Part shown: one piece after another, positions 2,171 through 63,804 of the stretch
Position numbering within the stretch: the stretch's first letter is position 1
Layout of the letters: every line of letters starts with the position of its first letter
DNA from: Rickettsiales bacterium
GTDB taxonomy: Bacteria; Pseudomonadota; Alphaproteobacteria; Rs-D84
Direction: 5' to 3'
DNA length: 64,000 bases
Assembly (NCBI GenBank): GCA_031266915.1
Contig: JAISAB010000002.1
Coordinates: 12,738-76,737, forward strand
Notes under the pieces: generated by a model
The model's database searches: none
The model's input: only the letters and a program-made list of their open reading frames with translations
What the model was told of the DNA's origin: nothing
Translations under genes and position numbers: made by a program

Positions 2171-2175
2171 TCAAA

Positions 2176-3954: not shown

Positions 3955-4052
3955 CTCGTCACCCCGGCGCAGGCCGGGGTCCATTGTGTTCAAACTATGA
4001 ACAATGCCCGTATGATGAATACATTGGATACCGGCCTGCGCCGGTATGACGC
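3955..4052. repeat. Pair of inverted GC hairpins (ccccggcgcaggccgggg … accggcctgcgccggt) flanking an AT palindrome
   Basis: Seen directly; lies between the low-GC methyltransferase gene and tRNA-Gly. The overlapping ORF 3859..4095 (…TPAQAGVH…) is just the hairpin translated. Confidence 0.5.
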
Positions 4053-4207
4053 CAAGAGAGAAGAATGTCGAAAAAGATACATTCCTATCACTTGAGTGAT
4101 CAATATAAAGCGGAATTTGCGGACATCACCGGGTGGCTTTTGCCGCGTTTAATAAAAACTTGATTTCAGCGGCGGTTAGTATATAATCCAAAGGCTTTTG
4201 AGAAAAC

Positions 4208-4250
4208 GCGGGTATAGTTCAAAGGCTAGAATGTCAGCCTTCCAAGCTGA
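4208..4250 (+). other. Truncated duplicate of the 5' half of tRNA-Gly (acceptor 5' strand, D-arm, anticodon stem-loop)
   Basis: 43 nt identical to 4341..4383 of the intact tRNA-Gly and then diverges; no T-arm. Confidence 0.7.
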
Positions 4251-4340: not shown

Positions 4341-4415
4341 GCGGGTATAGTTCAAAGGCTAGAATGTCAGCCTTCCAAGCTGAAAATGCGGGTTCGAGTC
4401 CCGCTACCCGCACCA
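4341..4415 (+). tRNA. tRNA-Gly (anticodon TCC), CCA encoded
   Basis: Cloverleaf GCGGGTA/TACCCGC acceptor, anticodon loop CTTCCAA, T-loop GGTTCGAGTCC, 3' CCA. Confidence 0.85.
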
Positions 4416-4504: not shown

Positions 4505-4591
4505 GGGCGTGCGCCGGAGTTGGAGAGCCGGGGCAGACTGTAAATCTGTTGGCTTATGCCTGAGCTGGTTCGAATCCAGCCACTCCCACCA
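4505..4591 (+). tRNA. tRNA-Tyr (anticodon GTA), type II with long variable arm; atypical C8 and one acceptor-stem mismatch
   Basis: Anticodon stem-loop GCAGA-CTGTAAA-TCTGT, variable arm about 14 nt, T-arm GCTGGTTCGAATCCAGC, CACTCCC-A-CCA end. The 5' strand GGGCGTG gives a C4·T69 mismatch. Confidence 0.55.
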
Positions 4592-4598
4592 AAAATAC

Positions 4599-4685: not shown

Positions 4686-4758
4686 GGAGTTTGCGAAGCA
4701 AACGATACGACTGCCCCGCAGTGGCAAAGCCACAAGGGAATCCAGCCACTCCCACCAA
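4686..4758 (+). repeat. Degenerate tRNA-Tyr-like copy: GGGAGTT 5' end and an exact duplicate of the tRNA-Tyr 3' end (gaatccagccactcccacca)
   Basis: 21-nt 3'-end identity to 4571..4591; the middle part is not tRNA-like; followed by a terminator hairpin at 4767..4790. Confidence 0.55.
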
Positions 4759-4766
4759 AATAGATT

Positions 4767-7143: not shown

Positions 7144-7989
7144 ATGAAACCGAATCACGAATCAAAAATCACAAATCACGACGAACGGCTGCCCGCCGGG
7201 CTGCATATCGTCGGAACGCCCATAGGAAATCTGTCGGATATGTCGCCGCGCGCAATCGATGTCCTGCGCCGCGCGGATTTAATTGCGTGCGAGGACACGC
7301 GTGTTTTCGGCAAGTTGGCCGCGCATTTCGACATAAAAACAAAAAAGGTGTCATTTCACGAGCATAACGAGCGCGCCGCGGTCGCAAACCTGACGGACAA
7401 AATTCAAAACGGCGCCGCCGTTGCCGTGGTCAGCGACGCGGGCATGCCCGGAATATCGGACCCGGGATTTCGCATTGCGCGCGAATGCCGCGCAGTGGGC
7501 CTGCCGGTGTTCGTGGTCCCAGGACCGGTGGCGGCGATTGCCGCGCTGGTGCTGTCGGGCTTTCCGACGGACCGGTTCACGTTCTGCGGATTCTTCGATG
7601 AAAAAAAAGCGCGCGACGACAACAGAATCCGCCACACAATTATTTACTACGAAAGTCCGAACCGCGTCATGGCGACCGTCGCGGCGCTGGCCCTGATTAT
7701 GCCCGAGCGACGCATAGCCATAGTGCGCGAAATCACAAAGATTCACGAAGAGACTATAATCGGCTATGCGGCGGAATTAATGCGCATAGAGCCGCCGCGC
7801 GGCGAAATCGTCATCGTAATCGAGCCTGCGCCGGAAACAAAGATGTCCGATGACGAAATATCCGAAATTGTAAATGATGTCGTCGCGGCGTCCACCAAGT
7901 CCGCGGCGGCAGATGTTGCCGCGCGCAGCGGGATTTCGAAAAAAGAAGCCTATAGGCGATTGATTAAAAAAGATGGGGGCACGCAATGA
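7144..7989 (+). CDS. rsmI: 16S rRNA (cytidine1402-2'-O)-methyltransferase RsmI
   Basis: LHIVGTPIGNLSDMSPRA…ACEDTR…VVSDAGMPGISDPG motifs; the N-terminal extension is encoded by a heptamer repeat. Confidence 0.85.
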   Translation: MKPNHESKITNHDERLPAGLHIVGTPIGNLSDMSPRAIDVLRRADLIACEDTRVFGKLAAHFDIKTKKVSFHEHNERAAVANLTDKIQNGAAVAVVSDAGMPGISDPGFRIARECRAVGLPVFVVPGPVAAIAALVLSGFPTDRFTFCGFFDEKKARDDNRIRHTIIYYESPNRVMATVAALALIMPERRIAIVREITKIHEETIIGYAAELMRIEPPRGEIVIVIEPAPETKMSDDEISEIVNDVVAASTKSAAADVAARSGISKKEAYRRLIKKDGGTQ

Positions 7990-8543
7990 TAAAATTTGTC
8001 GGCAGTTTTGAAAGGGTATCGCAATTGCCCAAAACGCAATTCCCCGAATACGCGTTTATCGGCCGCAGCAATGTCGGCAAGTCTTCACTGATTAACGCGA
8101 TTGCGGGCGCCGCAATTGCGCGCACGTCCAAGACGCCGGGCCGCACGCAGTCGCTGAATCTGTTTAATTTCGACGACCGGATTATAATTACGGACCTGCC
8201 CGGGTACGGATACGCCCGGGTTTCCAAGGCCGACCAGGTGCGCTGGCTGGACAGGTTGGGAGATTATCTGCTGAACCGCCGCCAGCTGGCAAGATTGTTC
8301 GTGCTGGTTGATTCGCGTGTCGGCGTCAAGGAATCCGATTTGGAACTGATGGATTTCTGCGACCGCAACGGAATTTCATACCAGGTCGTTCTGACAAAAA
8401 AAGATAAGAAAATCCGCGAAAAGAATCAGGATGTAATCCGCGCGGACAATCATCCGGCCATGATGGAAGAGGTAATCGAAACTTCGTCCGAAAAGAAATT
8501 CGGCGTCGACATAATGAGGGAGATACTCGGCCTATGCCGGTGA
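7986..8543 (+). CDS. engB: Ribosome biogenesis GTPase EngB/YihA
   Basis: G1 motif GRSNVGKSSLINA and G3 motif DLPGYG; overlaps the rsmI stop (coupled). Confidence 0.85.
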   Translation: MIKFVGSFERVSQLPKTQFPEYAFIGRSNVGKSSLINAIAGAAIARTSKTPGRTQSLNLFNFDDRIIITDLPGYGYARVSKADQVRWLDRLGDYLLNRRQLARLFVLVDSRVGVKESDLELMDFCDRNGISYQVVLTKKDKKIREKNQDVIRADNHPAMMEEVIETSSEKKFGVDIMREILGLCR

Positions 8544-11203
8544 AAAGCAACATCTTCTGCGCAAGCAATCCGGCAAGGCTGATTGACGCCTTGTGGGAAA
8601 TCATAAAGCAGGGCGGGTCGGACTTTTCCGACGACATTATATTCCTGCCGTCGCGGCGCGCTGCGCGCAGCGTTGAAAAAATGCTGGTTGAAAAATCCGG
8701 CGCCGCGGTATTGCTGCCTACGCTGGTGGCATTGGGCGAGGGTGCGGACGAAGACGACGATGACGTCGTCCATTCTGATGTTGTGTCGAATACCGAGCGC
8801 GTCGTCGTTCTGGCGAAACTGCTGAGCGCGGACGCGAACATACGGACGATTTCGAACGCGCTGCCGATTGCGCGCGATTTGACGCGTATGCAGGATTACC
8901 TGGAAAACGAGGGAATTGCCGCCGCCGCGATTGACTGGCCGGCGCTGGTCGATGAAAAGTACGCAGCGCATTTTCAGAAAAAGGCGGAATTTTTGAAATT
9001 ATCCGGCGCGTTCCTGTCTAACATATTTCCCAACAAAATCACCGAAACTCAAAAAAGAAACGCCGACATCCGCGCATGGATTAAATCCGAAATACTAAAT
9101 AATAAATCTAAAATCATTGTCTGCGGATCGACCGGCAGCGTACCGGCGACCGCCGACTTGATGGCCTATGTCGCGGGCATGTCCAACGGCTATATCATTC
9201 TGCCGGGCAAAATTAATTGCGGCCCCGGCGAATGGCCGATGGACGGCGGATTCAACGCGTGCAATCCGTACCATTGCGAAAAAATGTTCCTGGACCGGAT
9301 AAGCGTCGCGCCGTCTGACGTTCAAATTATCGATACAGGCCCGTCGAACATGGATTTCCTGAACGCTGCATTTTCAAATTCGGTTAACGGTTCACGGTTC
9401 ATGGTTTACGGCACGCAGTTGGTCGAATGCGCGCGCGAAAGCGAAGAGGCATGGTGCGTCGCCGAAATTGCTGCCCGCGCCGTGGCAGACAACAAAACCG
9501 TTCTGGTTATAACGCCCGACGCCGCCGGAAACCAGCGCATTGCCGCGGCGCTGAGCCATCGCGGCATAGCGGCCGACTTTTCGGGCGGAAAAAGCGGCGC
9601 CATGACGCTGGCGGGACGCGCGCTGTTGAATCTGTTCGACGATTGGATAGAGGATAAAAATTCGTCCGCATTCGACGGTTTGTATAAACGCAACGATTCC
9701 AATTTGTTCAAAACGTTGGTTGAGATTGTTGAAACAATGCCCGATGTTCTGTCGCCGCGGTTCCAATTCGATTCCGATGAATCGGCCGTCGTCTGGGACG
9801 CGCTGGAAAAGACGTCCGACGCATTGTCAAGGAACGGAATCGCGCTGACATTGTCCGACGCGCGCGCGGTGGTTGCGGACGCGCTGGCCGGCGCGACGGT
9901 CCGCCCGCCGATGAACGACGGCGCGGCCGTCTGCGTGCTGGGGACAATCGAATCCAGAATGCAAAGCGCCAATGTCGTCGTCCTGACCGGCTTGAACGAA
10001 GGGATGTTTCCCGCGCAAGGGTACGAGAATTCGTGGCTGCCGCGCACTATGGCGCAGAAAATCGGATTGCCGCCGGCGGACAGAAAGGTGTCGCTGATGG
10101 CACTGGACTTTATGAATCTGTCCTGCGGCGCGGAAGTTTACTGGCTGCGCAGCAAGACCGCCGGCGGCAGCCAGACCACCGAGAGCCGGTTTCTTTCAAG
10201 AATACAAGTCGCGACAAAGGTCGCAGATCGCAGAGCACAGAGCGAAGGTTTCGCCGCTTCGCGGCAGAGCGTAGAGCGCAGGTCGCAGGTGGAAGGTGTT
10301 GAACCACCTGCGCACTGCGCACTGCGACCTTCCACCTTGCTGCAAGCGGTGCGGGCCCGCGACGAGGTCGAATACAGGCCGCTGGATTATTCGCCGCCGC
10401 GCATTCCGGCCGACCGCAGCGACGTCTATGTGACCGAACTGGAATTGCTGATTCATAATCCTTATGCTTTCTATGCGCGGCATATATTGCGTCTGCGCCC
10501 GTTGGACGATTATTGGCAGGAACCCGATGCGCGCGACTTCGGCAATCTGGTGCACGGCGTGATAGAAGAATGTTCAAAGTTCAAAGTTCAGAGTTCAGAT
10601 GATTTGATAGAAATGATGGACAAACGCGCGAAGCAAATATTGCCGGCGGGCAGTGCCGTATATCATTTCTGGCACAAGCGCTTTGTCGAAATCGCTCCGG
10701 CTGTCGAGGCGCTGCTGCGGGAATCGCAGAGCCTGAACCGGCAGCAATCAGAAATCGACCTTTGTACGACCATCGCGGGTCGTCGCGTCCGTGCGCGCGC
10801 GGATATGGTTTATTACAAGCAATTTCCCGATTCTGCGGAACCGATTACCGTTGCGCTGGACATCAAAACGGGTGCAGTCCCGTCAAGAAGCCAGCTAGAG
10901 CAGGGCAATATGCCGCAATTGCCGCTGGAGGCGCATATGATTCAATCAGGCGGATTCGCCCAGGGGTCGGGGCCCCAGGTTCAAAGCCCGAATGTCGTCA
11001 TGCAGTTTCTGCAACTGAAAAACAATAACGTAAAGCTGATTGAATACGACGCGGACGCGACGCAAAAGATGATTGATGCCGCCGTCGACAAAGTATCACA
11101 GCTGTTCGGTCGATATTCGAATGATGGCGAGCCGTATGAATACTACGAAACGTCCGACCCAAAGTATAAGGTCTATGACGACCTGGCCCGCGTTGACGAT
11201 TAA
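8534..11203 (+). CDS. addB: AddB-like double-strand-break repair nuclease/inactive-helicase subunit, carrying an in-frame palindromic-element insertion
   Basis: N-terminal …IFLPSRRAARSVEKML… and C-terminal PD-(D/E)xK region (ADMVYYKQ…DIKTG), typical of alphaproteobacterial AddB. Confidence 0.6.
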   Translation: MPVKSNIFCASNPARLIDALWEIIKQGGSDFSDDIIFLPSRRAARSVEKMLVEKSGAAVLLPTLVALGEGADEDDDDVVHSDVVSNTERVVVLAKLLSADANIRTISNALPIARDLTRMQDYLENEGIAAAAIDWPALVDEKYAAHFQKKAEFLKLSGAFLSNIFPNKITETQKRNADIRAWIKSEILNNKSKIIVCGSTGSVPATADLMAYVAGMSNGYIILPGKINCGPGEWPMDGGFNACNPYHCEKMFLDRISVAPSDVQIIDTGPSNMDFLNAAFSNSVNGSRFMVYGTQLVECARESEEAWCVAEIAARAVADNKTVLVITPDAAGNQRIAAALSHRGIAADFSGGKSGAMTLAGRALLNLFDDWIEDKNSSAFDGLYKRNDSNLFKTLVEIVETMPDVLSPRFQFDSDESAVVWDALEKTSDALSRNGIALTLSDARAVVADALAGATVRPPMNDGAAVCVLGTIESRMQSANVVVLTGLNEGMFPAQGYENSWLPRTMAQKIGLPPADRKVSLMALDFMNLSCGAEVYWLRSKTAGGSQTTESRFLSRIQVATKVADRRAQSEGFAASRQSVERRSQVEGVEPPAHCALRPSTLLQAVRARDEVEYRPLDYSPPRIPADRSDVYVTELELLIHNPYAFYARHILRLRPLDDYWQEPDARDFGNLVHGVIEECSKFKVQSSDDLIEMMDKRAKQILPAGSAVYHFWHKRFVEIAPAVEALLRESQSLNRQQSEIDLCTTIAGRRVRARADMVYYKQFPDSAEPITVALDIKTGAVPSRSQLEQGNMPQLPLEAHMIQSGGFAQGSGPQVQSPNVVMQFLQLKNNNVKLIEYDADATQKMIDAAVDKVSQLFGRYSNDGEPYEYYETSDPKYKVYDDLARVDD
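10217..10340 (+). repeat. Palindromic element of about 125 bp (terminal inverted repeat AGGTCGCAG…CTGCGACCT) inserted in-frame in addB; RPE-like
   Basis: Near-identical copy at 47946..48079 inside xerC/D; open in several frames on both strands. Confidence 0.8.
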
Positions 11204-11329: not shown

Positions 11330-11437
11330 AAACACTAGTGTATAGTTAATAGTCATTAGTCAGTAGTCATTAGTGAATGTGTCGCGCCTTTGGCGCGATG
11401 ACTTTATTAACTATAGACTATTGACTGTGCACTATCG
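11330..11437. repeat. TAGTNNN-heptad long hairpin element with central GC hairpin (gtgtcgcgcctttggcgcgatgac)
   Basis: Arms tagtcat/tagtcag/tagtcat/tagtgaa and their reverse complements. Confidence 0.7.
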
Positions 11438-12129: not shown

Positions 12130-12378
12130 CCTGAAAGCAATGCTACAATCCCTGTGTCGCGGAGAATTTCTGCGATGGGGTGTCACAGCCTTGCACATGC
12201 GTCGAGAGATGATTGGCGCGCTTTTGCGCCGATTTTTATATCACGGCGAAAAATAACTCCTGACCGGGTCAGGAGGGCTCGTGAATATATTGAATAAACG
12301 GCACAATTCATGTGATTGTTGTGAACCTCCTGACCGCCATTTACCGGCGGTTTTTCGTTCGAAAAAAAGGAGGTTAGG
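12130..12378 (+). promoter_or_regulatory. Conserved structured 5' leader (attenuator/riboswitch-like), subtype 2, upstream of a cysteine-rich secreted protein gene
   Basis: Hairpin CTCCTGACC/GGTCAGGAG; linker GAATATATTGAATAAACGG; AACCTCCTGACC; terminator GACCGCC-N-GGCGGTT-UUUUU; AAAAAAAGGAGG-ATG. Covaries with the other copies. Confidence 0.7.
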
Positions 12379-13002
12379 ATGAAGTTTAAAATATTAGTGC
12401 GCGCAACGGCATTTTTGATTGCGTTTGGATTCGCATTCGCATCGTCTGATTCATTTGCAGAGGAGCCTGTAGAAGAAGCCCCCGATTGTAGTGGTCAATC
12501 CTGGTGCACTTACTTTACTGGCGGTAGACGTTGTGGTGGTGAAGATTGCAATGTAGGTAGGTATGGTACTTGCGAGTGTGTGGAAATTGTTGCGCAATGC
12601 ATTTGCAACGCCGGATATGAAATTTTTGGCGACGGCGAAGATTGCACTTGCACCGCGAAATGCGCGAACACCTGCCAGTCCAGCGGCACCACGGCATGCG
12701 CCATCCAAAATGGCGCCGGCACCAAGCAGAATACAGGTGGAAACAACTGCACGGGCAACTGCACGTATGGAGCATGCACGGTATCGTCATGCAACAACGG
12801 GTACTATAAAAATGGAAATGTATGCACGGCATGTACGGCGCCCGACGGAATCACTTTGACTAATGGCAGCAATCCGGCTATCGGCATGAATATAAAAAGC
12901 AAGAACAACGGAGTGAATGGAAGAACCGATTGCTATATAGAAGGAAATTTCAACGATTCGACCGGGGCATTCGGCATCACTGGCACCAATTGCACTTATT
13001 AA
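12379..13002 (+). CDS. Secreted cysteine-rich protein (repetitive C-x-C / N-G-T-rich modules)
   Basis: Signal peptide MKFKILVRATAFLIAFGFAFA; more than 25 Cys; strong Shine-Dalgarno. Confidence 0.6.
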   Translation: MKFKILVRATAFLIAFGFAFASSDSFAEEPVEEAPDCSGQSWCTYFTGGRRCGGEDCNVGRYGTCECVEIVAQCICNAGYEIFGDGEDCTCTAKCANTCQSSGTTACAIQNGAGTKQNTGGNNCTGNCTYGACTVSSCNNGYYKNGNVCTACTAPDGITLTNGSNPAIGMNIKSKNNGVNGRTDCYIEGNFNDSTGAFGITGTNCTY

Positions 13003-17390: not shown

Positions 17391-18716
17391 CTATTTCCCC
17401 AAACACAGTTGCCCGAACGCCGCATCCGCGATTTCGTCCGCGCCGATGACGCCCAATATCCTGCCGACGGCGTCAGCCGCGGCGCGCGCGTGTTCTGCGA
17501 ATATATCGTAATCGGTAATCGGTAATCGGTAATCCGACAGGGCGGACCGCAATTCATCGGCGGCGGTTTCCAGCAGTCCGCGCGTTCGTTCATTCACGGC
17601 GATGTCGGATTCCGCGCCATCCAGCATCGCGTGCATTTTTTGCTTAATCGCGTCCAGCAGTTCAGGAATACCGTCGCCGGTAAGGGCGGAGGCATGAATG
17701 GATGATGGATGATGGATAATGGATGACGGGTCGATTAAATCGGATTTGTTGATAACAATAATCTCGTTATCTTTGGCCGCTTCATTCAACATTCCACACT
17801 CAACATTCAACACTTTTATAATCAAATCGGCGTTTTCGATTTCCGCATGCGCGCGCTGGATGCCGATGTTTTCAATCGCGTCGTTCGATTCGCGGATGCC
17901 GGCCGTGTCGGACAGATTGACCAGGTATCCGTCTATGTCCAGTTCCGCGTCGACCACGTCGCGCGTCGTTCCGGGAATGTCTGACACGATGGCGCGCGCA
18001 TGGCCGACCAGTCTGTTGAACAAAGACGATTTGCCGACGTTGGTTTCACCCGTAAAAACGATATTGAAACCGCCGCGGACGGCGCGCGCCGCCGCATAGC
18101 CCGATAACGCGCCGCGGATGTCCGCATGCAGTTTCTTTGTTTGCGCAAATAATTTCTCGCCGATGTTTTCCGGCAATTCGTCGGAGGCATAATCCAAAAT
18201 CGCGGCAGCGTACGCGGCGATTTCCACCATTTGGCTGCGCCATGATTCATAGACGGAACTATCGCCGCCCGTCATGGATTTCAGGGCAAGCATGCGCTGG
18301 CGGTCCGTGCGCGCATCCAGCAGCGCCGCCAGGCCATCGACCGCCGGCAAATCCATTTTATTGTTGTAAAAGGCGCGGCGGGAAAACTCGCCGGGCTGGG
18401 CTATGCGCATTCCATGTGTGCGCAGATGTTCGAATATTTTCTCGATAACGGCCGACGCCCCGTGGCAATGGATTTCGACGACGTCTTCGCCGGTGAACGA
18501 ATTCGGCGCGCGAAAATAAATCGCGATAATTTGGTCAATCAAAGCGCCGCTGTCGTCGCGCAGGTCGGTCAGATAGGCATGGCGCGGAATAATGGATGAT
18601 GGATAATGGATGATGGATGACGGGTTGATTTGGCCGCTGATGCGGATGACGGCGACGCCGGATTTTCCCAGGCCCGATGATAATGCAAAGATTGCGTCGC
18701 CGGTTTCTCGGTTCAT
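17391..18716 (-). CDS. mnmE: tRNA modification GTPase MnmE (TrmE), carrying three in-frame heptamer-repeat insertions
   Basis: G-domain GETNVGKSSLFN, DTAGIRE, NKSDL; C-terminal …CLGK. Confidence 0.85.
   Translation of the reverse strand: MNRETGDAIFALSSGLGKSGVAVIRISGQINPSSIIHYPSSIIPRHAYLTDLRDDSGALIDQIIAIYFRAPNSFTGEDVVEIHCHGASAVIEKIFEHLRTHGMRIAQPGEFSRRAFYNNKMDLPAVDGLAALLDARTDRQRMLALKSMTGGDSSVYESWRSQMVEIAAYAAAILDYASDELPENIGEKLFAQTKKLHADIRGALSGYAAARAVRGGFNIVFTGETNVGKSSLFNRLVGHARAIVSDIPGTTRDVVDAELDIDGYLVNLSDTAGIRESNDAIENIGIQRAHAEIENADLIIKVLNVECGMLNEAAKDNEIIVINKSDLIDPSSIIHHPSSIHASALTGDGIPELLDAIKQKMHAMLDGAESDIAVNERTRGLLETAADELRSALSDYRLPITDYDIFAEHARAAADAVGRILGVIGADEIADAAFGQLCLGK
17512..17535. repeat. 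GGTAATC heptamer tandem repeat (×4) inside the mnmE CDS
   Basis: Seen directly; encodes …DYRLPITDYD… without breaking the ORF. Confidence 0.7.
17696..17728. repeat. TGGATGA/TGGATAA heptamer tandem repeat inside the mnmE CDS (encodes PSSIIH-type repeats)
   Basis: Seen directly; related copies at 18592..18621 and 56727..56830. Confidence 0.7.
18592..18621. repeat. Second TGGATGA heptamer repeat tract inside mnmE
   Basis: aatggatgatggataatggatgatggatga. Confidence 0.7.
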
Positions 18717-20638: not shown

Positions 20639-21124
20639 ATGACGCGCATTTTGGGGATTGACCCCGGGCTTTTGCACACGGGATGGTCTGTGATTGATTC
20701 GGCCGGCAACGCGCGGGCCTATGTCGCCAGCGGCGTGATTCTGCCGCCAAAGACCGAGGAGCTGGCCGTGCGCCTGGCATTTATTTTCCGCGAAGTGTCG
20801 AAATTGCTGGATATATGGAAACCTGACGAATGCTCGGTCGAAATCATATTTGTGAACAAGAATCCGAAAACGACGCTGGTTCTGGGCCAGGCGCGCGCGG
20901 CCGCGCTGATTGCCGTCGCGGACAAGGTTATCCCGGTTTTCGAGTACGAGCCGAACAAGATAAAAAAAGCGCTGAGCGGCGCGGGCCACGCCGACAAGGA
21001 ACAGATTTATAAAATGGTGAAGCTGCTGCTGCCGGTGGCCAATCCGAAAACGTCGGACGAAAGCGACGCGATTGCCATCGCGCTGGCGCATAGTAATATG
21101 AGCAGGGTAATAGTTAGTAAATAG
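20639..21124 (+). CDS. ruvC: Crossover junction endodeoxyribonuclease RuvC
   Basis: MTRILGIDPGLLHTGWSV…; catalytic D/E pattern; …AIAIALAH… C-terminal motif. Confidence 0.85.
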   Translation: MTRILGIDPGLLHTGWSVIDSAGNARAYVASGVILPPKTEELAVRLAFIFREVSKLLDIWKPDECSVEIIFVNKNPKTTLVLGQARAAALIAVADKVIPVFEYEPNKIKKALSGAGHADKEQIYKMVKLLLPVANPKTSDESDAIAIALAHSNMSRVIVSK

Positions 21125-21212
21125 TGATTAGTGCTTAGTTGATAGTGCATAGTTAATTAGTTCACTAATCACTATAAACTATTCACTATACACTACCAAC
21201 TATTTGTTTTTC
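21104..21212. repeat. TAGTNNN-heptad hairpin element between convergent ruvC and the 21211 gene
   Basis: tagtgat tagtgct tagttga tagtgca tagttaa … cactaat cactata aactatt cactata. Confidence 0.7.
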
Positions 21213-21609
21213 AGTTTCCGCACAGCGTGTGCGTGCCGGACGAATCGCGGACCTGGATGCATCCGTTTTGAAACCATATCTTTGCGCGTCCGGCCGGGGC
21301 CGCGGCCGATGGTTCCGATGTCTTGACGGTGTCGAAACGCGCGTCGTCGCCGGCCGCGACGGTGCCTGTATCCGTACCGACGGGAATCCGCGCGATACCT
21401 AATGTTCCACTTGTTATATTCGCCGCATTCGTCTGGTCCAAGTTCTGAACGTTACCGAGGCCGACCTGGGCCGCCGTCACGTTATGCGGATTGTCAGTTC
21501 GCGCGGTGTGCGCGTCGACATAGCTCTTGCCGGCAATTTCCGCCAATGCCGGCGTCGCGGCAAAAAAACATAATAAAAACATAATTCGTTTTTTCATATT
21601 CACAGCCAT
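21211..21609 (-). CDS. Secreted tail-fibre-like protein, short paralog (signal peptide + 'EIAGKSYVD…DNPHNVTAAQVGLGNVQN…' N-module + small Cys C-terminus)
   Basis: N-module about 80% nucleotide-identical to the start of the upstream gene 21600..22475; motifs recalled from phage tail-fibre N-terminal domains. Confidence 0.55.
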   Translation of the reverse strand: MAVNMKKRIMFLLCFFAATPALAEIAGKSYVDAHTARTDNPHNVTAAQVGLGNVQNLDQTNAANITSGTLGIARIPVGTDTGTVAAGDDARFDTVKTSEPSAAAPAGRAKIWFQNGCIQVRDSSGTHTLCGN

Positions 21610-22719: not shown

Positions 22720-22835
22720 GAAACCGTGATACGTGACACGAAATACGTAATACGAAATTGGCACAATAATGATTATATCGCACGATTTACGTATCACGAG
22801 TCACGTATTTCGTATTACGGCCTGCCGGATTCCTT
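22720..22835. repeat. Inverted repeat built from CGTGATA/CGTAATA-type heptads (about 30-bp arms, about 40-bp spacer)
   Basis: cgtgatacgtgacacgaaatacgtaatacg … cgtatcacgagtcacgtatttcgtattacg. Confidence 0.6.
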
Positions 22836-22919: not shown

Positions 22920-23216
22920 ATGAAAGATATGCCAAAAGACCAAATGGAACGCATCATGCACAAGTTGTATCACAAACGCAACTTTCTGCTGCGCGCGTTC
23001 GTAATCAACCTGGTTCTGATAATAGCGGTGTGGGGACTGTCCATGACGGATTTCTATGCGAATATGGCGGGACACTTTATGCACTGTCCGGCGGCGCAGG
23101 CGGAAACGTATACCATGGATTTGCTGGGCGCGTGGAAAATCGCGGGCGTTCTGTTCTTCCTGGTGCCTGCGCTGGCCGCATGGTGGGAACTGCATGCATG
23201 CCGGAAACGCCAATAG
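22920..23216 (+). CDS. Small hypothetical membrane protein (2 transmembrane helices)
   Basis: Two hydrophobic helices; intact ORF with upstream AT-rich promoter region. Confidence 0.45.
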   Translation: MKDMPKDQMERIMHKLYHKRNFLLRAFVINLVLIIAVWGLSMTDFYANMAGHFMHCPAAQAETYTMDLLGAWKIAGVLFFLVPALAAWWELHACRKRQ

Positions 23217-23312
23217 TTATTAGTGCATAGTGATTAGTGCTTAGTTTATAGTACATAGTTAAAATTTACTAAACACTAAGCACTATAAACTATGCACTAC
23301 TCACTAATGACT
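23214..23312. repeat. TAGTNNN-heptad hairpin element (7 heptads per arm) between convergent genes
   Basis: tagttat tagtgca tagtgat tagtgct tagttta tagtaca tagttaa | tactaaa cactaag cactata aactatg cactact cactaat gactatt. Confidence 0.75.
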
Positions 23313-23637
23313 ATTTTCTTATCGTCACCTTTGCCACGGCGTCATAGCCGAAGTATTTGTTTATCTTTGCCGCGATGTCGTCTTTCATATAGGATAATTG
23401 CAGCGCGAACGCCGGATTCGCGGCGCGCACGGCGATATTGAATTTCTTGTCGCGGGTCTTGGTTATCGCGGCCAGCCGCGCAATCGACGCGATGTCGCCG
23501 CCCATGATTTCATCCCAGCGATTGCTCAAATCAGCGTCTGATGCGCGGACGCCGAACAGCCGCATCAATCCCCCGAACGTCGACGCGATGGTCTGGGGGC
23601 GGGCAGTGCGTTTGTTAAGATTAACAGGATTGGCCAT
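23311..23637 (-). CDS. DUF721/DciA-like protein (putative helicase-loader family)
   Basis: …RWDEIMGGDIASIARLAAI…FNIAVRAANPAFALQLSYMKDDIAAKINKYFG…VKVTIRK fits the DUF721 pattern. Confidence 0.5.
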   Translation of the reverse strand: MANPVNLNKRTARPQTIASTFGGLMRLFGVRASDADLSNRWDEIMGGDIASIARLAAITKTRDKKFNIAVRAANPAFALQLSYMKDDIAAKINKYFGYDAVAKVTIRK

Positions 23638-23645: not shown

Positions 23646-23740
23646 CATTAGTTTATAGTGATTAGTGCTTAGTTTATAGTGCATAGTTAAATAGCTTACT
23701 AATCACTAAGCACTATTCACTATACACTACAAACTAGTGT
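23646..23740. repeat. TAGTNNN-heptad hairpin element between dciA-like gene and mltA
   Basis: tagtttatagtgattagtgcttagtttatagtgcatagtt … aatcactaagcactattcactatacactacaaactag. Confidence 0.7.
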
Positions 23741-24832
23741 CTAGTAAGGTTTCACATACACGTATTCTTTGGGCATCAGGATGTACATCTCGCCCTGGGA
23801 ATGCTGGCCTTGGGCGTATTTGTACGCGTCGTCGCCCTTGCCGAAGAATATGTCCGCGCGTATCCAGCCGCGGATGGCGCTGCCGGTGTCTTGGGCAATC
23901 ATCAGCCGGCGGAACTTGCGCCCGTCGGATAGGTTCGTGTTGACATATACGGGCAGCCCCAGCGTATACAGCGAATCGTCCATCGCGATGCTGCGGATTT
24001 TCGACAGCGGCGTGCCGATTTTGCCAATCACGTCCGGCGGCACCGACACATAGAAATACACATAGCGCGGATTGTTGTAAATAACCTCGCGCGCAAGCGC
24101 CGGGTTCTGGCGTAGATGCTGCCATACGGCCTCGGACGAATATCCGTTTGCCGGGCGGATGTTTTTCGCCTTCAGCTGTTCCCCAATCGATTTGAACGGC
24201 ATGTCGTTCACGGCCGCGAAGTTCAATTTGACCAGGGTGCCGTCTTCCAGCTGCAGCATGCCGCTGCCTTGGATTTGGATGTTCTGAACATCGACAATGT
24301 TCGCCCAGTACAGAACTTTGCCGATTTGGTTGTTCACGATTGTCTTCTTGTCCACGCCTTTGTACGCTCGCCCGTCAGTCGGAATGCCCATCAGGGGTTC
24401 GTTATACTGTGTGCTTTTGCTTTTCGAGGCAGGGATAATCGGCGAATAATATCCTGTGTATGTTCCTTTGTCTTTGCCGGCATCGTCATGGATTTTATAC
24501 GGCTGGAAGTGCGATTCGAACCAAGCGCGCACGGTCGCGGTGTCCGCGGACGCCGCGGGCAGCATTTTGCACTTTTCTTCGAACAGCGCCGCGTCAGGCA
24601 CGACCCGGCCGACATATTGGATGCGGGCCTTGCAGCTGTTGCGGAACGACTGCAGGGCGTATCGGACGTCATCCTCGCGCCAGCCGGGCAGCTGCGAGTA
24701 CGAAACCGCGCGCAGATTGGACGGCACGGTCGACCGGTTGCCTGTATGATGTGTCGGGCTCGGCGCAGGCCCGCTTAAATCGCAAGATGCCAAAAACAGG
24801 CATAGCACGCCAAGTATCGATATTTTTTTCAT
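23741..24832 (-). CDS. mltA: Membrane-bound lytic murein transglycosylase A (MltA-like lipoprotein)
   Basis: Lipobox LFLASC; MltA/3D-domain motifs (…QDTGSAIRG…); size about 360 aa. Confidence 0.7.
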   Translation of the reverse strand: MKKISILGVLCLFLASCDLSGPAPSPTHHTGNRSTVPSNLRAVSYSQLPGWREDDVRYALQSFRNSCKARIQYVGRVVPDAALFEEKCKMLPAASADTATVRAWFESHFQPYKIHDDAGKDKGTYTGYYSPIIPASKSKSTQYNEPLMGIPTDGRAYKGVDKKTIVNNQIGKVLYWANIVDVQNIQIQGSGMLQLEDGTLVKLNFAAVNDMPFKSIGEQLKAKNIRPANGYSSEAVWQHLRQNPALAREVIYNNPRYVYFYVSVPPDVIGKIGTPLSKIRSIAMDDSLYTLGLPVYVNTNLSDGRKFRRLMIAQDTGSAIRGWIRADIFFGKGDDAYKYAQGQHSQGEMYILMPKEYVYVKPY

Positions 24833-25437: not shown

Positions 25438-25462
25438 AAAACCGGCGAAAGCCGGTTTTTTA
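25434..25462. terminator. Bidirectional Rho-independent terminator (aaaaaaaccggcgaaagccggtttttt)
   Basis: Perfect hairpin flanked by A- and T-runs. Confidence 0.8.
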
Positions 25463-25554
25463 AATAGCAAATATCAAATAGCAATTTGGTGCAGAATTGG
25501 GCTATAACACCATAAACGGCACCCCATTTGCTATTTGATATTTGCTAATTGCTA

Positions 25555-25720
25555 TTTTTCTTCTGGACACGGGCGTCACAAAGGCGCACAATGCCATCAC
25601 AGGACCGCTAATCCAAACCATCCTTGGATTGTACATAGTTCCCGTTTTCAAAAATCCCGCATTTCCGCCGTCTCTTATTTCCCATTTATTGCCTAATCTA
25701 AACCATGGTTTTTATATCAT
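25555..25720 (+). promoter_or_regulatory. 165-bp duplicated promoter/5'-UTR block (second copy 63805..63965) containing TTATTGCCTAATCTAAACCATGGTTTTTATATC (-35/-10-like)
   Basis: About 90% identical to 63805..63965; the TTGCCT-N17-TATAT motif is also at 44290 and 44395; upstream of a secreted tail-fibre-like gene. Confidence 0.55.
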
Positions 25721-25743
25721 TCTTGGCAATGGGGAAAAGAGAG

Positions 25744-26385
25744 ATGAACAGAATAATTTCCAAGTTATCACGTGTGTTATTATGTGTGGCGCTTATCGCG
25801 TTATTTGCACCCATGTCGGCCCGGGCCGAAATCGCGTCTAAGTCCTATGTAGATAGTCTGGCGATGCCGAACGGTGACGATTACTTGCAAAAAGCCGGCG
25901 GCACGATGACCGGTGAAATCGCGATGGGCGGAAATAAAATAGCAGGTTTGGGCGCGCCGACGGACGGCGACGATGCGACGACCAAGGACTATGTTGATAA
26001 TCTGGCCGCGGCCGGCGGAGGGACCATCGGCGGCGGTTCCGTCCCATCGTGGGCCGCGCTGAACGGCGAAGACTGGGCGGACAGCGGCTGGGGCGTCAAA
26101 TGGGTTGTCGATAACGGAACATATATGGTTGACGGCGTCGGCACATGCCTGTCGACAGATAGCAGAAGCGGCATCCTACCCAGCACATTCGGTTACGGCC
26201 CGAACTGCTGGTGCAGGGTCGAAGGAATAAACAATACGCGCGTTTTGGGCGCCTGGGTGTTCAAGCATACTGAAAGCGGCGGCTATGAAGATTGTTATGC
26301 GACCTGCGCGTCAAGATGCGCCAATTGCGTACGCGTAGGCTCGTCCGATGGATGCAGCCGCGCCGCGTTGTTCACTGCGCCATGA
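25744..26385 (+). CDS. Secreted tail-fibre-like protein ('EIASKSYVD…GGTMTGEI…KDYVDN' N-terminus) with Cys-rich C-terminus
   Basis: Signal peptide MNRIISKLSRVLLCVALIALFAPMSARA; motifs recalled from phage tail-fibre/collar N-termini; C-terminal CWC…CYATCASRCANC. Confidence 0.55.
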   Translation: MNRIISKLSRVLLCVALIALFAPMSARAEIASKSYVDSLAMPNGDDYLQKAGGTMTGEIAMGGNKIAGLGAPTDGDDATTKDYVDNLAAAGGGTIGGGSVPSWAALNGEDWADSGWGVKWVVDNGTYMVDGVGTCLSTDSRSGILPSTFGYGPNCWCRVEGINNTRVLGAWVFKHTESGGYEDCYATCASRCANCVRVGSSDGCSRAALFTAP

Positions 26386-26389
26386 TAAT

Positions 26390-26605
26390 AAATAATAAAG
26401 AATAGATAATAAAGAATAAAAATATGTTCGGTCTAATTTCCCCTCCTATGGAGGGGTGGCGCGCGGATGCGCGACGGGGTGGTTAGAGGTTTCGAGATTA
26501 AATTTTGATTATCCAACCACCTCCCGGTCTTCGACCGTACTCCTCCAAAGGAGGAGAACTTAGACCGAACATATTTTTATTCTTTATTATTTATTCATTA
26601 AAAAG
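26390..26605. mobile_element. MITE-like non-coding element with terminal inverted repeats of about 30 bp (ataataaagaataaaaatatgttcggtctaa … ttagaccgaacatatttttattctttattat) enclosing several GC hairpins
   Basis: Terminal inverted repeats seen directly; a solo repeat-like sequence (aataaagaatagagaataaagaataaa) occurs at 2213..2245 next to the low-GC island. Confidence 0.55.
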
Positions 26606-26698: not shown

Positions 26699-26822
26699 GA
26701 AATAGTCTATAGTCGATAGTCATTAGTCTATAGTGATTAGTATTTAGTTGATAATGCATAGTTGACTAGTTTACTGAACACTAACGACTATTGACTATAG
26801 ACTAATGATTATTGACTACACC
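26699..26822. repeat. TAGTNNN-heptad hairpin element
   Basis: tagtctatagtcgatagtcattagtctatagtgattagtatttagttgataatgcatagttgactagtt … and reverse-complement arm. Confidence 0.7.
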
Positions 26823-28049: not shown

Positions 28050-28185
28050 GGATAGCATATAGCGGTAGTTGATAACCATTAGTGATTAGTGCATAGTGTT
28101 TAATTATTAGTAAACTAGTTAACTATTCACTATAAACTAATCACTATTAACTACTGACTAATGACTATTGACTAACAGTTGTTTT
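28050..28185. repeat. TAGTNNN-heptad hairpin element between MFS gene and recA
   Basis: …cattagtgattagtgcatagtgtttaattattagtaaactagttaactattcactataaactaatcactattaactactgactaatgactattgacta. Confidence 0.7.
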
Positions 28186-30252: not shown

Positions 30253-31260
30253 ATGCCGGCAATATCGGTCGTGATACCTGTATATAATGTTGAAAAATAC
30301 CTGCGGCGCTGTTTGGACAGCGTCGCGGGTCAGACTTTCTCGGACTGGGAGGCGATTTGCGTCAACGACGGCAGCCCTGACAACAGCGCCGCGATACTGG
30401 CCGAATACGCCGCACGCGACAAGCGGTTCAAAGTCATCACCAAGGAAAACGGCGGCCTGTCCGACGCGCGCAATGTCGGCACGGACGCCGCGACCGGCGA
30501 CTATCTGATTTATTTGGATTCGGACGATTTTATTCATCCCCAGACGATGGAATTTTCCTATGCGCTGGCGCAGCGCGACGGTTCCGACATCGTATCCTGG
30601 TACAAGGATAAGTTCTTTCGCCCGCAGTTGCTGATATGGTACAAGCTGGGGTTCGACATCGATTCCATGATGCCGCGCCGAATCAAAAAAAGGTACAAGC
30701 TGGAAAAAATCAGGACATGCGTCACGGACGATGTCTTCGCGCATACGACCGAGCGTCCGAACAGCAGCATCAAATGGCCCATCAAGCATTTTTACGTATG
30801 GCGCCATTTAATCCGCCGCGAATTCATCAAAGGAATAAAATTCATCAAGGGAATCACTTTCGAGGATTTTCCCTGGTGGTCCGAGGTCATGCTGCACCAT
30901 CCGCGCGTCACGATTACCAAGCTGCCGTTCCTTTATTACTTTCCGAACCTTAATTCCATCGACATGGCGTCCAACGAGGTCAAGAAAGTGCGCAACTGGA
31001 TAATCGGTTTGGAATCGTCTTACAATATGTACAGGGCACGGGCGACCGATTATGAAAAGATCGCATGGGAACGCGAAGTCATGTGGCCGGTCATCGTCTA
31101 TCAGATTTTTCGCAAGGTAAGATATATCAAAAAGTCGGCGGATGCCGAATTTATCAAAGAGACGTTGCTGCGTTTCAAAGAAATGGGCATGTTCGACAAT
31201 CCACAGACCTGGCGGGCAAAAATATATCAGCGCAGAATTTTGAAGTATATCAATCAATAG
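30253..31260 (+). CDS. Family 2 glycosyltransferase
   Basis: ISVVIPVYNVEKYLRRCLDSV…NDGSPD…YLDSDD GT2 motifs. Confidence 0.8.
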   Translation: MPAISVVIPVYNVEKYLRRCLDSVAGQTFSDWEAICVNDGSPDNSAAILAEYAARDKRFKVITKENGGLSDARNVGTDAATGDYLIYLDSDDFIHPQTMEFSYALAQRDGSDIVSWYKDKFFRPQLLIWYKLGFDIDSMMPRRIKKRYKLEKIRTCVTDDVFAHTTERPNSSIKWPIKHFYVWRHLIRREFIKGIKFIKGITFEDFPWWSEVMLHHPRVTITKLPFLYYFPNLNSIDMASNEVKKVRNWIIGLESSYNMYRARATDYEKIAWEREVMWPVIVYQIFRKVRYIKKSADAEFIKETLLRFKEMGMFDNPQTWRAKIYQRRILKYINQ

Positions 31261-31352
31261 TCATTAGTGAGTAGTGCATAGTTTATAGTGATTAGTGAAT
31301 TAGTTAACTATGCACTATAAACTAAGCACTAATCACTATGCACTAACTATTA
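31256..31352. repeat. TAGTNNN-heptad hairpin element between convergent glycosyltransferase genes
   Basis: tagtcattagtgagtagtgcatagtttatagtgattagtgaattagtt | aactatgcactataaactaagcactaatcactatgcactaacta. Confidence 0.7.
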
Positions 31353-32210
31353 AATATTGTATTCCCGGAATCGCGATGGGATTTTTGTGACCAGTTTGAT
31401 GCCAAACATAAACGGCTTGTTCCATGCATATGGCGGTCGGAATACCGTCTGCATCGCGCGCGCCAATTTGATATAGGACGCGCGGCGGCGCTTTTTCCGT
31501 GTGATGATAAAAATCGTTTCGGCGCGGCGCGCCAGATGTTTCCGCCAATTCGGATTCCGGTCGCCGATTTTGTTTCGAAGCATCTCGTAATCAACACTGC
31601 CGAAATGCAACAGGTGCAGATTTTTATCAATATGGAAATTGTGTCTTTTGACGCTGTGAAATCCGCTGCCCCAGCGCAGCGGTTTCGCCAAGACCACAGG
31701 CTTGGTATAGCGCGTCGACAGCAGGGCGTATTCGCGCTGCGCCAGGAATGGCTCGTTCGCGTCCAATGGATATTCGCGATTCAAATCCTGACCGACGTCC
31801 AGGCCCAGGCCTGAAACAGAGGTTTTAATGTCCGCGTCCGACAAATATTGTTTCAGCGTCTTGCCAACCGCCGGGTTGACGACCAGGAATTCGTCGCAAT
31901 CGCATCCGATAACCAAGTCATATCCCTGGGCAAACAATTCCGTGGCCCGTTTTGACAGCAATCTGATGCGGTGTTTGTCGCCGGCCCGGCGGGACAGCCC
32001 GTCGATATGTTCCATCTTGGTTATATGGGCGTTTCGGGCGCCGCCTGGGATTTTCTGGTCCAGACCGTCAAGGTAGATGTACAGATTTTCTTCGCCCAAT
32101 TGTTCGCCGTAATAGGCAATCCAACGGTTCAGAAAGAACTCGTCATTTCGCGCCATAGTTATCGCGGCGATTCTATTCCCGCGCCGACGGGAATCCTTTG
32201 TATTTGACAT
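31350..32210 (-). CDS. Putative glycosyltransferase (GT2-like fold)
   Basis: Within the glycosyltransferase cluster; IAAITMARNDEFFLNRWIAYY…YLDGLD resembles GT2-type N-terminal motifs (weak). Confidence 0.45.
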   Translation of the reverse strand: MSNTKDSRRRGNRIAAITMARNDEFFLNRWIAYYGEQLGEENLYIYLDGLDQKIPGGARNAHITKMEHIDGLSRRAGDKHRIRLLSKRATELFAQGYDLVIGCDCDEFLVVNPAVGKTLKQYLSDADIKTSVSGLGLDVGQDLNREYPLDANEPFLAQREYALLSTRYTKPVVLAKPLRWGSGFHSVKRHNFHIDKNLHLLHFGSVDYEMLRNKIGDRNPNWRKHLARRAETIFIITRKKRRRASYIKLARAMQTVFRPPYAWNKPFMFGIKLVTKIPSRFREYNI

Positions 32211-37249: not shown

Positions 37250-37276
37250 AAAACCGCCCGCCCGGGCGGTTTTTTC
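37250..37276 (+). terminator. Rho-independent terminator (aaaaccgcccgcccgggcggttttttc)
   Basis: GC hairpin plus T-run. Confidence 0.75.
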
Positions 37277-37280
37277 GTAA

Positions 37281-37306
37281 ATCGTGACTCGTGATTCGTG
37301 AATCGC
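37281..37306. repeat. TCGTGAC/TCGTGAT/TCGTGAA heptamer tract (reverse complement of the CGAATCA repeat found in ftsK and rsmI)
   Basis: atcgtgactcgtgattcgtgaatcg. Confidence 0.6.
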
Positions 37307-37319
37307 AAGATGGCATATA

Positions 37320-37370
37320 AAACAGTAGTGAGTAGTGAACTAGTTAACTATGCACTAATCACTACTGATT
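37320..37370. repeat. Short TAGTNNN-heptad hairpin element
   Basis: agtagtgagtagtgaactagttaactatgcactaatcactactg. Confidence 0.6.
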
Positions 37371-40438: not shown

Positions 40439-40482
40439 TTCAAAAATCCTCCGGATTTTTTAATTTATAAGTTATAAAGGAT

Positions 40483-40833
40483 AAGTTATAACTTTTTAAC
40501 CTTTTTTATAATCGATGTCAGAATCTTTTCCAATTCTACGCAATCCTTGTAAATATCATCAAACTGTTTCTTTGTAATAAAACCAGACTTTTGCAACAGC
40601 CGCAGCCAAAACAGTGTTTAGGAACATTCGCGCTGCGATATTTCAAGCTTTGCAACAAAATCCCTGTCGCTTGATGCATGCACCGCTTCCGCCGCATTCG
40701 CACCAATGCTTGTGCCTGAGCGAAAAATCTGTTTCGAAATAATGAACTCTTTTTTATTATTAAGATATTTAAAGAGTTTTATTATTCTTAAGGCGAAATC
40801 TTCGCTTTTTTGCAAAATCAGACTCTCGGCCAT
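40483..40833 (-). pseudogene. Four-helix-bundle ('23S rRNA intervening sequence') protein interrupted by an in-frame TAA
   Basis: …GTSIGANAAEA…KLEISQRECS*TLFWLRLLQKSGFITKKQFDDIYKDCVELEKIL… continuous in one frame across the stop at 40615..40617; low-GC region. Confidence 0.55.
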
Positions 40834-63800: not shown

Positions 63801-63804
63801 ATTT

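Follow-up and report, generated by a model that had tools for sequence, protein, structure and literature searches.

The window analysed here is a 64-kb stretch of contig JAISAB010000002.1 (assembly GCA_031266915.1) from an uncultured alphaproteobacterium of the Rickettsiales. It is chromosomal, with ruvA, ruvC, dciA, mltA, secB, recA, ftsK, mutL and secDF among its genes. Scattered between these genes is a family of palindromic elements, each consisting of an arm of TAGTNNN heptads followed by an arm of NNNACTA heptads, which appear to be copies of a dispersed non-coding repeat and which provide several neighbouring genes with their stop codons. Element statistics and gene counts refer to this window unless stated otherwise.

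Heptad elements of the window

Chains of TAGT, defined as at least three TAGT at a spacing of 7 nucleotides (nt), were found to start at 11336, 21115, 23214, 23649, 26703, 28066, 31258, 44158, 47006, 59930 and 63726. An ACTA chain follows each of these 11 TAGT chains, and an additional short element is located at 37326-37364, giving 12 element loci with 23 arms in total. The original prediction for this DNA had described a heptad-built intergenic hairpin family at gene ends with at least 13 copies. The described structure is present at all positions it named and the family stands, whereas the count is reduced to 12, since 59928 and 60148 represent the two arms of a single element split by a 187-nt insert. 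Not captured in that description were the donation of TAG stop codons, the invariant order of the arms, the near-identical duplicate copies and many other arrays of period 7, some of them intragenic.

Arms comprise 3-9 heptads, and the elements are 39-294 nt long with a guanine-cytosine (GC) content of 0.26-0.43. In element E3 (23214-23313), the left arm reads TAGTtat TAGTgca TAGTgat TAGTgct TAGTtta TAGTaca TAGTtaa and the right arm, after a short loop, ACTAaac ACTAagc ACTAtaa ACTAtgc ACTActc ACTAatg ACTA. The individual elements are as follows (ORF, open reading frame; dG, predicted folding energy in kcal/mol; z, z score of the fold):

E1, 11336-11434: subfamily B; left arm of 6 TAGT heptads (11336-11379); centre formed by the conserved module GAATGTGTCGCGCC-TTTG-GGCGCGATGACTTTATTA, homologous to E10 and E9; right arm of ACTA heptads at 11410-11434, one degenerate; 132 nt past the stop of gene 8534-11203; dG -46.2, z -8.2.
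E2, 21111-21202: subfamily A; between the convergent ruvC (+) and ORF 21211-21609 (-); the ruvC stop is the TAG at 21122-21124, within the third heptad; z -4.4.
E3, 23214-23313: arms of 7 TAGT and 7 ACTA heptads around a 7-nt loop region; occupies the gap between the convergent ORF 22920-23216 (+) and dciA 23311-23637 (-), both of whose stops are terminal-heptad TAGs; dG -40.5, z -7.1.
E4, 23649-23736: has the stop of mltA (TAG, 23741-23743) on one side and the start of dciA (23635-23637) on the other, with both genes on the minus strand; z -6.5.
E5, 26703-26818: heptads of the TAGTC type; 45 nt upstream of an MFS gene and downstream of a separate inverted-repeat element at 26383-26601; dG -45.5, z -7.8.
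E6, 28066-28174: between the stop of the MFS gene (28048) and the start of recA (28224); palindromic centre AAACTAGTTAACTA, right arm of 8 heptads; z -5.5.
E7, 31258-31349: between the convergent GT2 gene 30253-31260 (+), whose stop is the element's first TAG, and ORF 31350-32210 (-), whose stop lies directly past the last ACTA; dG -40.4, z -7.7.
E8, 37326-37364: short copy with 2-3 heptads per arm and a 25-nt centre, TAGTGAAYTAGTTAACTATGCACTA, in common with E7; closely preceded by a canonical terminator and an array of CGTGANT heptads (37255-37309); z -4.3.
E9, 44158-44260: subfamily B with the centre module reversed; the thioredoxin-reductase-like gene 43241-44167 ends on the TAG in heptad two; inverted repeat of 89%; dG -53.6, z -11.3.
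E10, 47006-47118: subfamily B with an extended GC-rich centre; between the convergent ORF 45277-47001 (+) and the DnaJ-domain gene 47116-47619 (-), whose stop is the TAG of the last ACTA heptad; dG -45.6, z -6.3.
E11, 59930-60223: left arm 59930-59971, its first TAG being the stop of the hydrolase gene 59357-59932; nested insert of 187 nt (59972-60158) related to 3918-4096; right arm of 9 heptads at 60159-60223; upstream of ftsK.
E12, 63726-63795: 4 TAGT heptads directly after the stop of ORF 62541-63725; right arm degenerate (ACTA at 63761 and 63791); weak fold, z -2.15.

Together, these elements account for 12.6% of the intergenic DNA, in which the autocorrelation peaks at lags 7, 14 and 21. 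Distances from TAGT to TAGT are almost exclusively 7, 14, 21 and 28 nt. Comparison with a shuffled background, named beforehand as the check on the periodicity, yielded no chain in 200 dinucleotide-preserving shuffles of the window. Moreover, 100 pairs of TAGT or ACTA lie 7 nt apart within the elements, compared to 0.09 in composition-matched internal shuffles, and an artefact of AT-rich composition is therefore ruled out. The consensus deduced from 99 regular heptads is TAGT[G/C/t][A/t/c][A/T], with positions 1-4 fixed, positions 5-7 variable and A rare at position 5. In all 11 window elements with both chains, the TAGT arm comes first and the ACTA arm second, and the element ends take the form AATAGT...ACTATT.

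Two subfamilies were distinguished. Subfamily A is characterized by TAGTG-rich heptads around a short palindromic centre (TAGTTAACTA), and subfamily B by TAGTC-rich heptads around the conserved centre TAGTGAA(T/G)GTGTCG...CGACGACTTTATTAACTA, which includes a GC-rich stem and is found in both orientations among its carriers E1, E10 and E9. The last ACTA is often followed by T-rich sequence, e.g., ACTATTTTCTT or ACTATTTGTTTTT. No G-tracts able to form G-quadruplexes are present in the elements, as the core is TAGT without runs of G. Furthermore, no Rfam family matched any element, two tRNAs being the only matches obtained.

Heptads of the form TATAGT or CATAGT look like -10 boxes, for example at 23652-23680, 28069-28097 and 21199-21171 (minus strand). 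Between 20000 and 39999, 41 promoter-like matches were counted versus a shuffled expectation of 21.8, i.e., about twice as many, and several of them are located within TAGT elements.

Gene ends, stop codons and terminator slots

Nine of the 12 elements adjoin the 3' end of a gene, with gaps of -14 to +17 nt from its stop codon. Convergent gene pairs enclose four elements and tandem pairs four or five, the latter being nearer to the stop than to the next start; no element separates divergent genes, in agreement with the predicted preference for convergent and tandem sites. Within any three successive heptads, each reading frame meets a TAG, and on the opposite strand the ACTA arm has the same effect. 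Since TAG recurs in all three frames of both strands, no ORF crosses an element. The absence of copies from coding sequences, correctly noted beforehand, is therefore partly automatic and forced by the stops that the element itself carries.

The flanking genes make use of these stops. TAG is the stop codon of eight of the 12 adjoining genes and of five of the 43 others (Fisher p = 3.5e-4), and in seven cases the gene's own stop is a TAG within the terminal heptads. The tail of RuvC is specified by the first two heptads in the window, where it reads VIVSK, as well as in the relative L122 introduced below. The elements thus supply stop codons and true C-termini of flanking genes. For annotation purposes, they fix the real stop codons and C-termini of their neighbours. 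A contig from the Logan assembly of SRR14710922 (L121, 1290-1317) encodes a GT2 protein identical to that of the window and ends inside E7, which suggests that the repeats break short-read assemblies.

Five syntenic loci from related uncultured alphaproteobacteria (L122, L123, L125, L126 and L127) were compared with the window. Zero period-7 arrays were detected in L123, L125, L126 and L127, in which intergenic gaps measure 0-90 nt. L122 (GCA_031555055.1) contains hairpins of the same type built from TAGC heptads, located at the end of ruvC, between mltA and dciA and between the GT2 gene and its convergent neighbour. The overlap of three junctions between L122 and the window is not significant given the density of elements (hypergeometric p = 0.28), and L122 is no nearer to the window than the array-free L126 is. 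For these two reasons, inheritance of orthologous sites is not claimed, and concerted evolution from TAGT to TAGC at inherited sites, which had been considered as a candidate, was dropped.

At three junctions where the window carries an element, canonical terminators occupy the same slot in relatives. Between the GT2 gene and ORF287, L123 and L127 possess a classical bidirectional terminator extending exactly from stop to stop, e.g., taa-aaatgccccaaatggggcatt-tta. The 3' end of the homologue of ORF 22920 reads aaaaaaaccgg...ccggtttttt in L122 and L123, and the end of ruvC in L126 is followed by an A-tract, a palindrome and a T-tract. In the window, these three slots hold E7, E3 and E2, respectively. 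Among the seven window junctions of convergent genes that have a gap, four hold TAGT elements, two canonical terminators and one neither. In the window, about 100 nt of hairpin (E4) separate the stop of mltA from the start of dciA, two genes that abut in relatives, and no Shine-Dalgarno sequence precedes dciA at this site. Folding of E4 would bring the mltA stop codon and the dciA start codon together. The role of bidirectional terminator or 3'-end hairpin suggested in the original prediction is accordingly favoured circumstantially by the three orthologous junctions, while the GC stem and U-tract, mostly missing from the elements, and the position of E4 in an apparent operon speak against it.

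Homology between copies and competing explanations

E3 and the reverse complement of E7 are about 93% identical, matching at nearly all of approximately 95 aligned positions, and the match breaks off sharply at AATAGT to one side and at GACTATT to the other; E7 is the same element as E3 in opposite orientation. E2 and E4 are about 90% identical over approximately 95 nt, with ends that are likewise sharp. Furthermore, four occurrences of the 20-mer ATAGTGATTAGTGCTTAGTT and three of a 25-mer were counted in the window. Arms share seven runs of three variable trinucleotides versus 0.30 expected and three runs of four versus 0.01 expected, and none of 2000 permutations among all arms reached the observed values for either run length. 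Arms within one element differ from each other, and an identical arm pair recurs at separate loci, from which it follows that whole elements were copied, in both orientations. Because the copies are homologous and share heptad order beyond chance, they represent a dispersed family resembling MITEs (miniature transposable elements with inverted repeats) or REPINs and not just the outcome of local slippage.

The capacity to form hairpins was evaluated by folding 11 elements. Ten of them are predicted to fold at -18 to -54 kcal/mol (z -4.3 to -11.3), values that no shuffle equals, and E12 is weak; the imperfect hairpin structure described originally is borne out by these ten. For the complementarity of the arms, a null was constructed in which the right arm was replaced by random heptads drawn from other copies. 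The real elements are no more stable than this null except for E9, where 1 of 300 null arms was as stable and which is the only copy with specifically complementary arms. As the arms pair no better than random family heptads, the stem is a by-product of two inverted arrays that draw on the same set of heptads. On the basis of this null, the candidate of a conserved RNA stem formed by matched arms was rejected.

Considering copy homology, sharp ends and gene context together, the elements are interpreted as copies of a lineage-specific, non-coding, palindromic dispersed repeat of the MITE or REPIN type, an interpretation that we regard as about evenly balanced. They possess several features by which MITEs are recognized, namely terminal inverted repeats, small size, no coding capacity and multiple homologous copies. 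Whole elements would have spread by being copied, presumably by a specific enzyme, into the very short gaps behind genes, and changes in the number of heptads within arms probably add variation in length. Insertion at the 3' end of a gene, or a few codons inside it, would be harmless because the element itself closes the reading frame. Once transcribed, the element is predicted to fold into a long hairpin that starts right at the stop codon and would take the position of the bidirectional intrinsic terminator of relatives. The most likely role would be a combined translation stop and transcript-end hairpin that may act in termination and/or in protection from 3' exonucleases, in both directions.

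Several observations weigh against this interpretation. Target-site duplications are not visible at the ends of E3/E7 or E2/E4, where a duplicated TA would escape notice, TA being part of each heptad. Pfam scans of about 50 ORFs in the 64 kb detected no transposase, no RAYT (Y1 transposase) and no other candidate mobilising gene. A parent insertion sequence with the same ends was also not found among the window ORFs (Pfam). A XerC/D-like recombinase is encoded at 47660-48715. BLAST searches of plasmids and phages with E9 and E3 returned nothing meaningful. A unit of repetitive extragenic palindromic (REP) sequences is an imperfect palindrome of 20-40 nt headed by GTAG, and no such GTAG-headed unit occurs in the elements. 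The proposed likeness to REP/BIME sequences is consequently retained as an analogy, based on homologous copies with sharp ends, and membership in REP or REPIN families is not, given the missing GTAG-headed unit and the missing RAYT in the window. Selection for a specific RNA stem left no sign, as the arms, save those of E9, are not specifically complementary, and no consistent strand bias in folding energy (G-U versus A-C mismatches) was observed. Moreover, a scan for consensus terminators leaves the elements unflagged. Most copies are devoid of a GC-rich stem and of a clear U-tract, the stems of subfamily A being AT-rich. A GC stem with an immediate U-tract, the mark of an intrinsic terminator, was not found; GC stems are confined to the subfamily B centres of E1, E9 and E10, and that of E9 points the wrong way for a terminator. 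A strong terminator at E4, within the apparent MltA-DciA operon, would be harmful, and E4 thus constitutes a counter-example to a simple terminator role. Finally, about 20 period-7 arrays do not consist of TAGT heptads and 12 of these lie within genes. They point to a general heptad-generating process that goes beyond a simple mobile-element model.

These arrays were recorded with a strict test (four consecutive units with at least four invariant columns), which found 43 arrays at period 7 in the window versus 0, 1, 0 and 2 at periods 5, 6, 8 and 9, and nine at period 7 in L122 versus 0-1 at other periods. TAGT or ACTA arms make up 23 of the 43; other cores are CGAATCA or CGTGANT, AAATAGC, AATAAAG, TTATAAC and ATGGATG, and several of these arrays begin right behind the T-tract of a canonical terminator. 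ATGGATG heptads are read in frame in two variable loops of MnmE (17695-17732 and 18586-18626; mnmE on the minus strand), giving the peptide PSSIIH(H/Y)P, and also encode the N-terminus of an S41 peptidase (56806-56831). A different heptad array, AGGTTTG, is present in the same MnmE loop of L122 (1548-1657). In-gene arrays and differing heptads in the same loop indicate that, besides element copying, a general heptad-forming process has operated in the window genome and in L122.

It is on this evidence that a purely local origin has to be weighed, in which the elements are heptamer simple-sequence repeats generated by a lineage-specific mutational process, e.g., polymerase slippage in a 7-nt register, wherever selection is weak. 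In this scenario, the process would both create and resize period-7 arrays, TAGT hairpins would simply be its commonest outcome, and the TAG stop at a gene end would seed an array growing outward, which would explain the TAG-outward order between convergent genes. The specificity for period 7 in both genomes, the arrays with other cores, their occurrence in variable protein loops, the variable arm length and the many arrays that begin exactly at a stop codon all fit such a process. In addition, two papers (PMC4679880, PMC4692102, both citing Mrazek 2007) report that among long repeat units heptamers are the most abundant in many bacteria, with a polymerase footprint of 7 nt as the proposed cause. 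Slippage can, however, yield neither near-identical whole elements at distant loci in both orientations nor a shared heptad order, and with random decay it would not hold four positions invariant while three vary freely. Tandem-gene sites moreover carry a full second arm without a stop codon to seed it, and mutL is intact in the window. As the explanation of the elements, slippage is considered unlikely, and as a contributor to length variation and to the non-TAGT arrays it is likely. Still less probable is that the elements are ordinary AT-rich repetitive terminators of the host, shaped by selection for hairpins and involving neither mobility nor a special protein. This notion, which we judge to be very improbable, would account for the slot shared with canonical terminators of relatives, for the stability of the predicted hairpins and for the T-rich sequence often found past the last ACTA. 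Selection on a stem requires neither a 7-nt period, nor an invariant TAGT, nor near-identical distant copies, the arms are not specifically complementary, and the genome also uses canonical GC-rich terminators.

The elements might also serve as an array of binding sites for an oligomeric protein reading (T/U)AG(T/U) every 7 nt, which we consider improbable; a binding array for a TAGT-recognising protein was also among the candidate roles of the original prediction. On RNA, such a protein would be HutP-like and would turn the hairpins into regulated terminators; on DNA, it would be comparable to the omega repressor of plasmid pSM19035, a ribbon-helix-helix protein that binds tandem 7-bp WATCACW units, direct or inverted. 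An invariant 4-nt core with a free 3-nt spacer (99 heptads) and a strict order of arms would be expected of binding sites, as would arms that are not specifically matched, if the units rather than the stem matter. Furthermore, subfamily B and elements of candidate-phyla bacteria have their arrays on the two sides of a GC-rich terminator stem. HutP recognizes three XAG triplets (UAG included) with 4-nt spacers, i.e., at period 7, on both sides of the terminator stem of the Bacillus hut operon, and melts this stem (PMC2425495). Each TAGT 5' arm, with its 3-9 units, likewise presents at least three UAG with 4-nt spacers. The HutP sites are two direct sites of three triplets on one strand at one locus in Firmicutes, whereas inverted pairs at many loci are found in the alphaproteobacterium, where the 3' arm reads ACUA and offers no second direct UAG array. 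No HutP family member, ribbon-helix-helix protein or other candidate was detected among the window proteins (Pfam scans, about 50 ORFs). A dozen ends of unrelated housekeeping genes within 64 kb fit specific regulation poorly, and the use of TAGC instead of TAGT in L122 would require all sites and the protein to have changed together.

Related repeats and further heptad arrays

No paper describing TAGT-heptad hairpins was found in the literature. The TAGT family is a variant within a known, unexplained class of bacterial heptamer repeats, of which the TAGT-core form itself is new. In cyanobacteria, heptamer repeats have been known since 1990, when Mazel and co-workers reportedly described short tandemly repeated repetitive (STRR) heptanucleotides. 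STRR sequences consist of near-exact units, e.g., CCCCAGT, and are lineage-specific and dispersed in non-coding DNA. TAGT elements resemble them as lineage-specific heptanucleotide arrays in non-coding DNA and differ in the sequence and exactness of the unit and in the host, here an uncultured alphaproteobacterium. Calothrix heptanucleotides are also mentioned in a study of Xanthomonas (PMC4692102).

The (GGGANTN)n/GGGAATC repeats of Xanthomonas are the closest known system. They number about 186 per genome and are approximately 90% intergenic, at a mean distance of 28 nt to the upstream ORF's end; each genome contains 70-75 inverted pairs in convergent arrangement as potential stem-loops, sites between divergent genes are rare, and the function is unresolved (Rehm et al. 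2015, PMC4692102). Common to both families are tandem 7-nt units with fixed and free positions, the intergenic location near the end of the upstream ORF with a scarcity at divergent sites, and variation in unit number, which in Xanthomonas differs between relatives. In contrast, the TAGT core precludes G-quadruplexes and carries a stop codon used by flanking genes, almost every TAGT array is paired, and whole TAGT elements are near-identical at distant loci. TAACTGA repeats of marine Beggiatoaceae, cyanobacteria and Bacteroidetes likewise provide stops in all three frames at gene boundaries and show a patchy distribution; their units are exact, run in direct orientation apart from a single inverted case among 170 sets, and are mostly located just upstream of start codons (MacGregor 2015, PMC4679880). 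Some of them overlap the stop of the upstream ORF and some abut starts without a ribosome-binding site, as E4 does at dciA. TAGT units, on the other hand, are degenerate, always form inverted pairs and are anchored at stop codons.

REP sequences and REPINs, which RAYT transposases mobilise, and prokaryotic MITEs, including the terminator-like SPRITE (compare PMC3116915 and PMC10969869), are short, non-coding, extragenic hairpin copies found especially at gene 3' ends, in both orientations, in lineage-specific families and with nested repeats, for which E11 is the counterpart here. Described REPs and MITEs are not known to have arms that consist of nothing but tandem heptads. Finally, the in-frame ATGGATG arrays in MnmE and the peptidase are reminiscent of Rickettsia palindromic elements (RPE). 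The in-frame insertion by which RPE add a peptide segment has no parallel in the TAGT elements, which cannot be read through.

The occurrence of comparable hairpins elsewhere was examined by a scan for five TAGT heptads in one genome per species, and the matches listed span many phyla. Among these listed matches, most are plain direct repeats and at least 12 loci are TAGT-then-ACTA hairpins, with none in the reverse order. The listed hairpin loci belong to Paceibacterota, Saccharibacteria, Planctomycetes, Oscillospiraceae, Nitrospirae, cyanobacteria and others, and at several of them the arms flank a canonical terminator. In viral contigs, some of which are related, four TAGT heptads, a loop and four ACTA heptads were found at 13 loci and the reverse order at none. 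Elements outside the window are flush with the ends of long open frames, regarded as putative genes, in 10 of 13 and 14 of 15 cases.

An exact 20-mer of the family was moreover identified in three metagenome contigs from other organisms (L128, L129 and L130; GC 45-63%). Arrays of period 7 only are present on these contigs at 1191-1622 and 6898-6988 (L128), 2316-2411 (L129) and 12339-12495 (L130), and they include TAGT hairpins, GGGAACA arrays and TAGCC arrays.

The strict TAG-outward order across several phyla and viral contigs is a possible sign of a general design. TAG-core heptad hairpins could represent a widespread, undescribed gene-end cassette that copies itself, stops translation in three frames and two directions, replaces the intrinsic terminator and has its arms kept in a strict 7-nt register by a dedicated activity, a proposal we consider to be a long shot. 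The activity keeping the register may be that of an enzyme adding heptads or of an oligomeric protein that binds (U/T)AG(U/T) every 7 nt. If the proposal were true, the same activity could explain the STRR, GGGAATC and TAACTGA families as well as the in-gene loop arrays of the window. Origin and function of the heptamers, which abound in Xanthomonas and Beggiatoaceae and also occur in cyanobacteria, are unexplained, and the TAGT family offers a testable functional logic independent of G-quadruplexes. Since it contains no G-tracts, quadruplex formation cannot be the common denominator of heptamer repeats, and since near-identical copies are located at distant loci, local slippage is not the whole explanation. 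A simple functional reading is provided by stops in every frame of both strands and a hairpin, placed in the slot of the relatives' bidirectional terminators.

Further heptad arrays and repeats were recorded in the window. Terminators consisting of a GC stem and T-tract are followed by a heptad array at 2195-2243 (AATAAAG), 25440-25559 (AAATAGC/ATTTGCT hairpin), 37255-37309 (CGTGANT) and 40440-40494 (TAAGTTA). The inverted repeat at 26383-26601, whose 62-nt arms are 90% complementary, has outer parts of AATAAAG/CTTTATT heptads around a 150-nt GC-rich centre and is another heptad-armed element; its heptads recur at 2210-2243. An array of AAATCAG AAATCAT AAATCAG AAATAAC (50429-50467) leads directly into the ATG of mutL without a Shine-Dalgarno sequence, resembling the Beggiatoaceae TAACTGA repeats upstream of start codons.

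Arrays of CGAATCA, CGAGTCA or CGTGANT at 7150-7182, 22725-22809, 37271-37309 and 60988-61024 contain GANTC every 7 nt, with pairs 7 nt apart at 7152, 37286/37293 and 60991-61005. GANTC is the CcrM methylation motif of alphaproteobacteria. A methyltransferase gene has one of these GANTC arrays at its 5' end, the linker of FtsK contains another, and a further one, placed between divergent genes, forms a hairpin.

A 163-nt repeat, 91% identical between 25553-25715 and 63804-63966 and partial at 44313-44338 and 44394-44424, spans the upstream region and first codons of the hypothetical gene 25705-26385 and of a gene starting near the window end. Its fragment precedes ORF 44420-45229, and each of the three copies has a heptad hairpin shortly upstream of it. 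An island of low GC (36.5% over 2001-4000) encodes a 501-amino-acid protein (2317-3822) with EcoRI-like adenine methylase and T5orf172 domains and adjoins tRNA-Gly and tRNA-Tyr. The first 43 nt of tRNA-Gly (4208-4250 versus 4341-4383) and the last 23 nt of tRNA-Tyr (4572-4594 versus 4738-4760) are duplicated nearby, a pattern as observed at integration sites of mobile islands.

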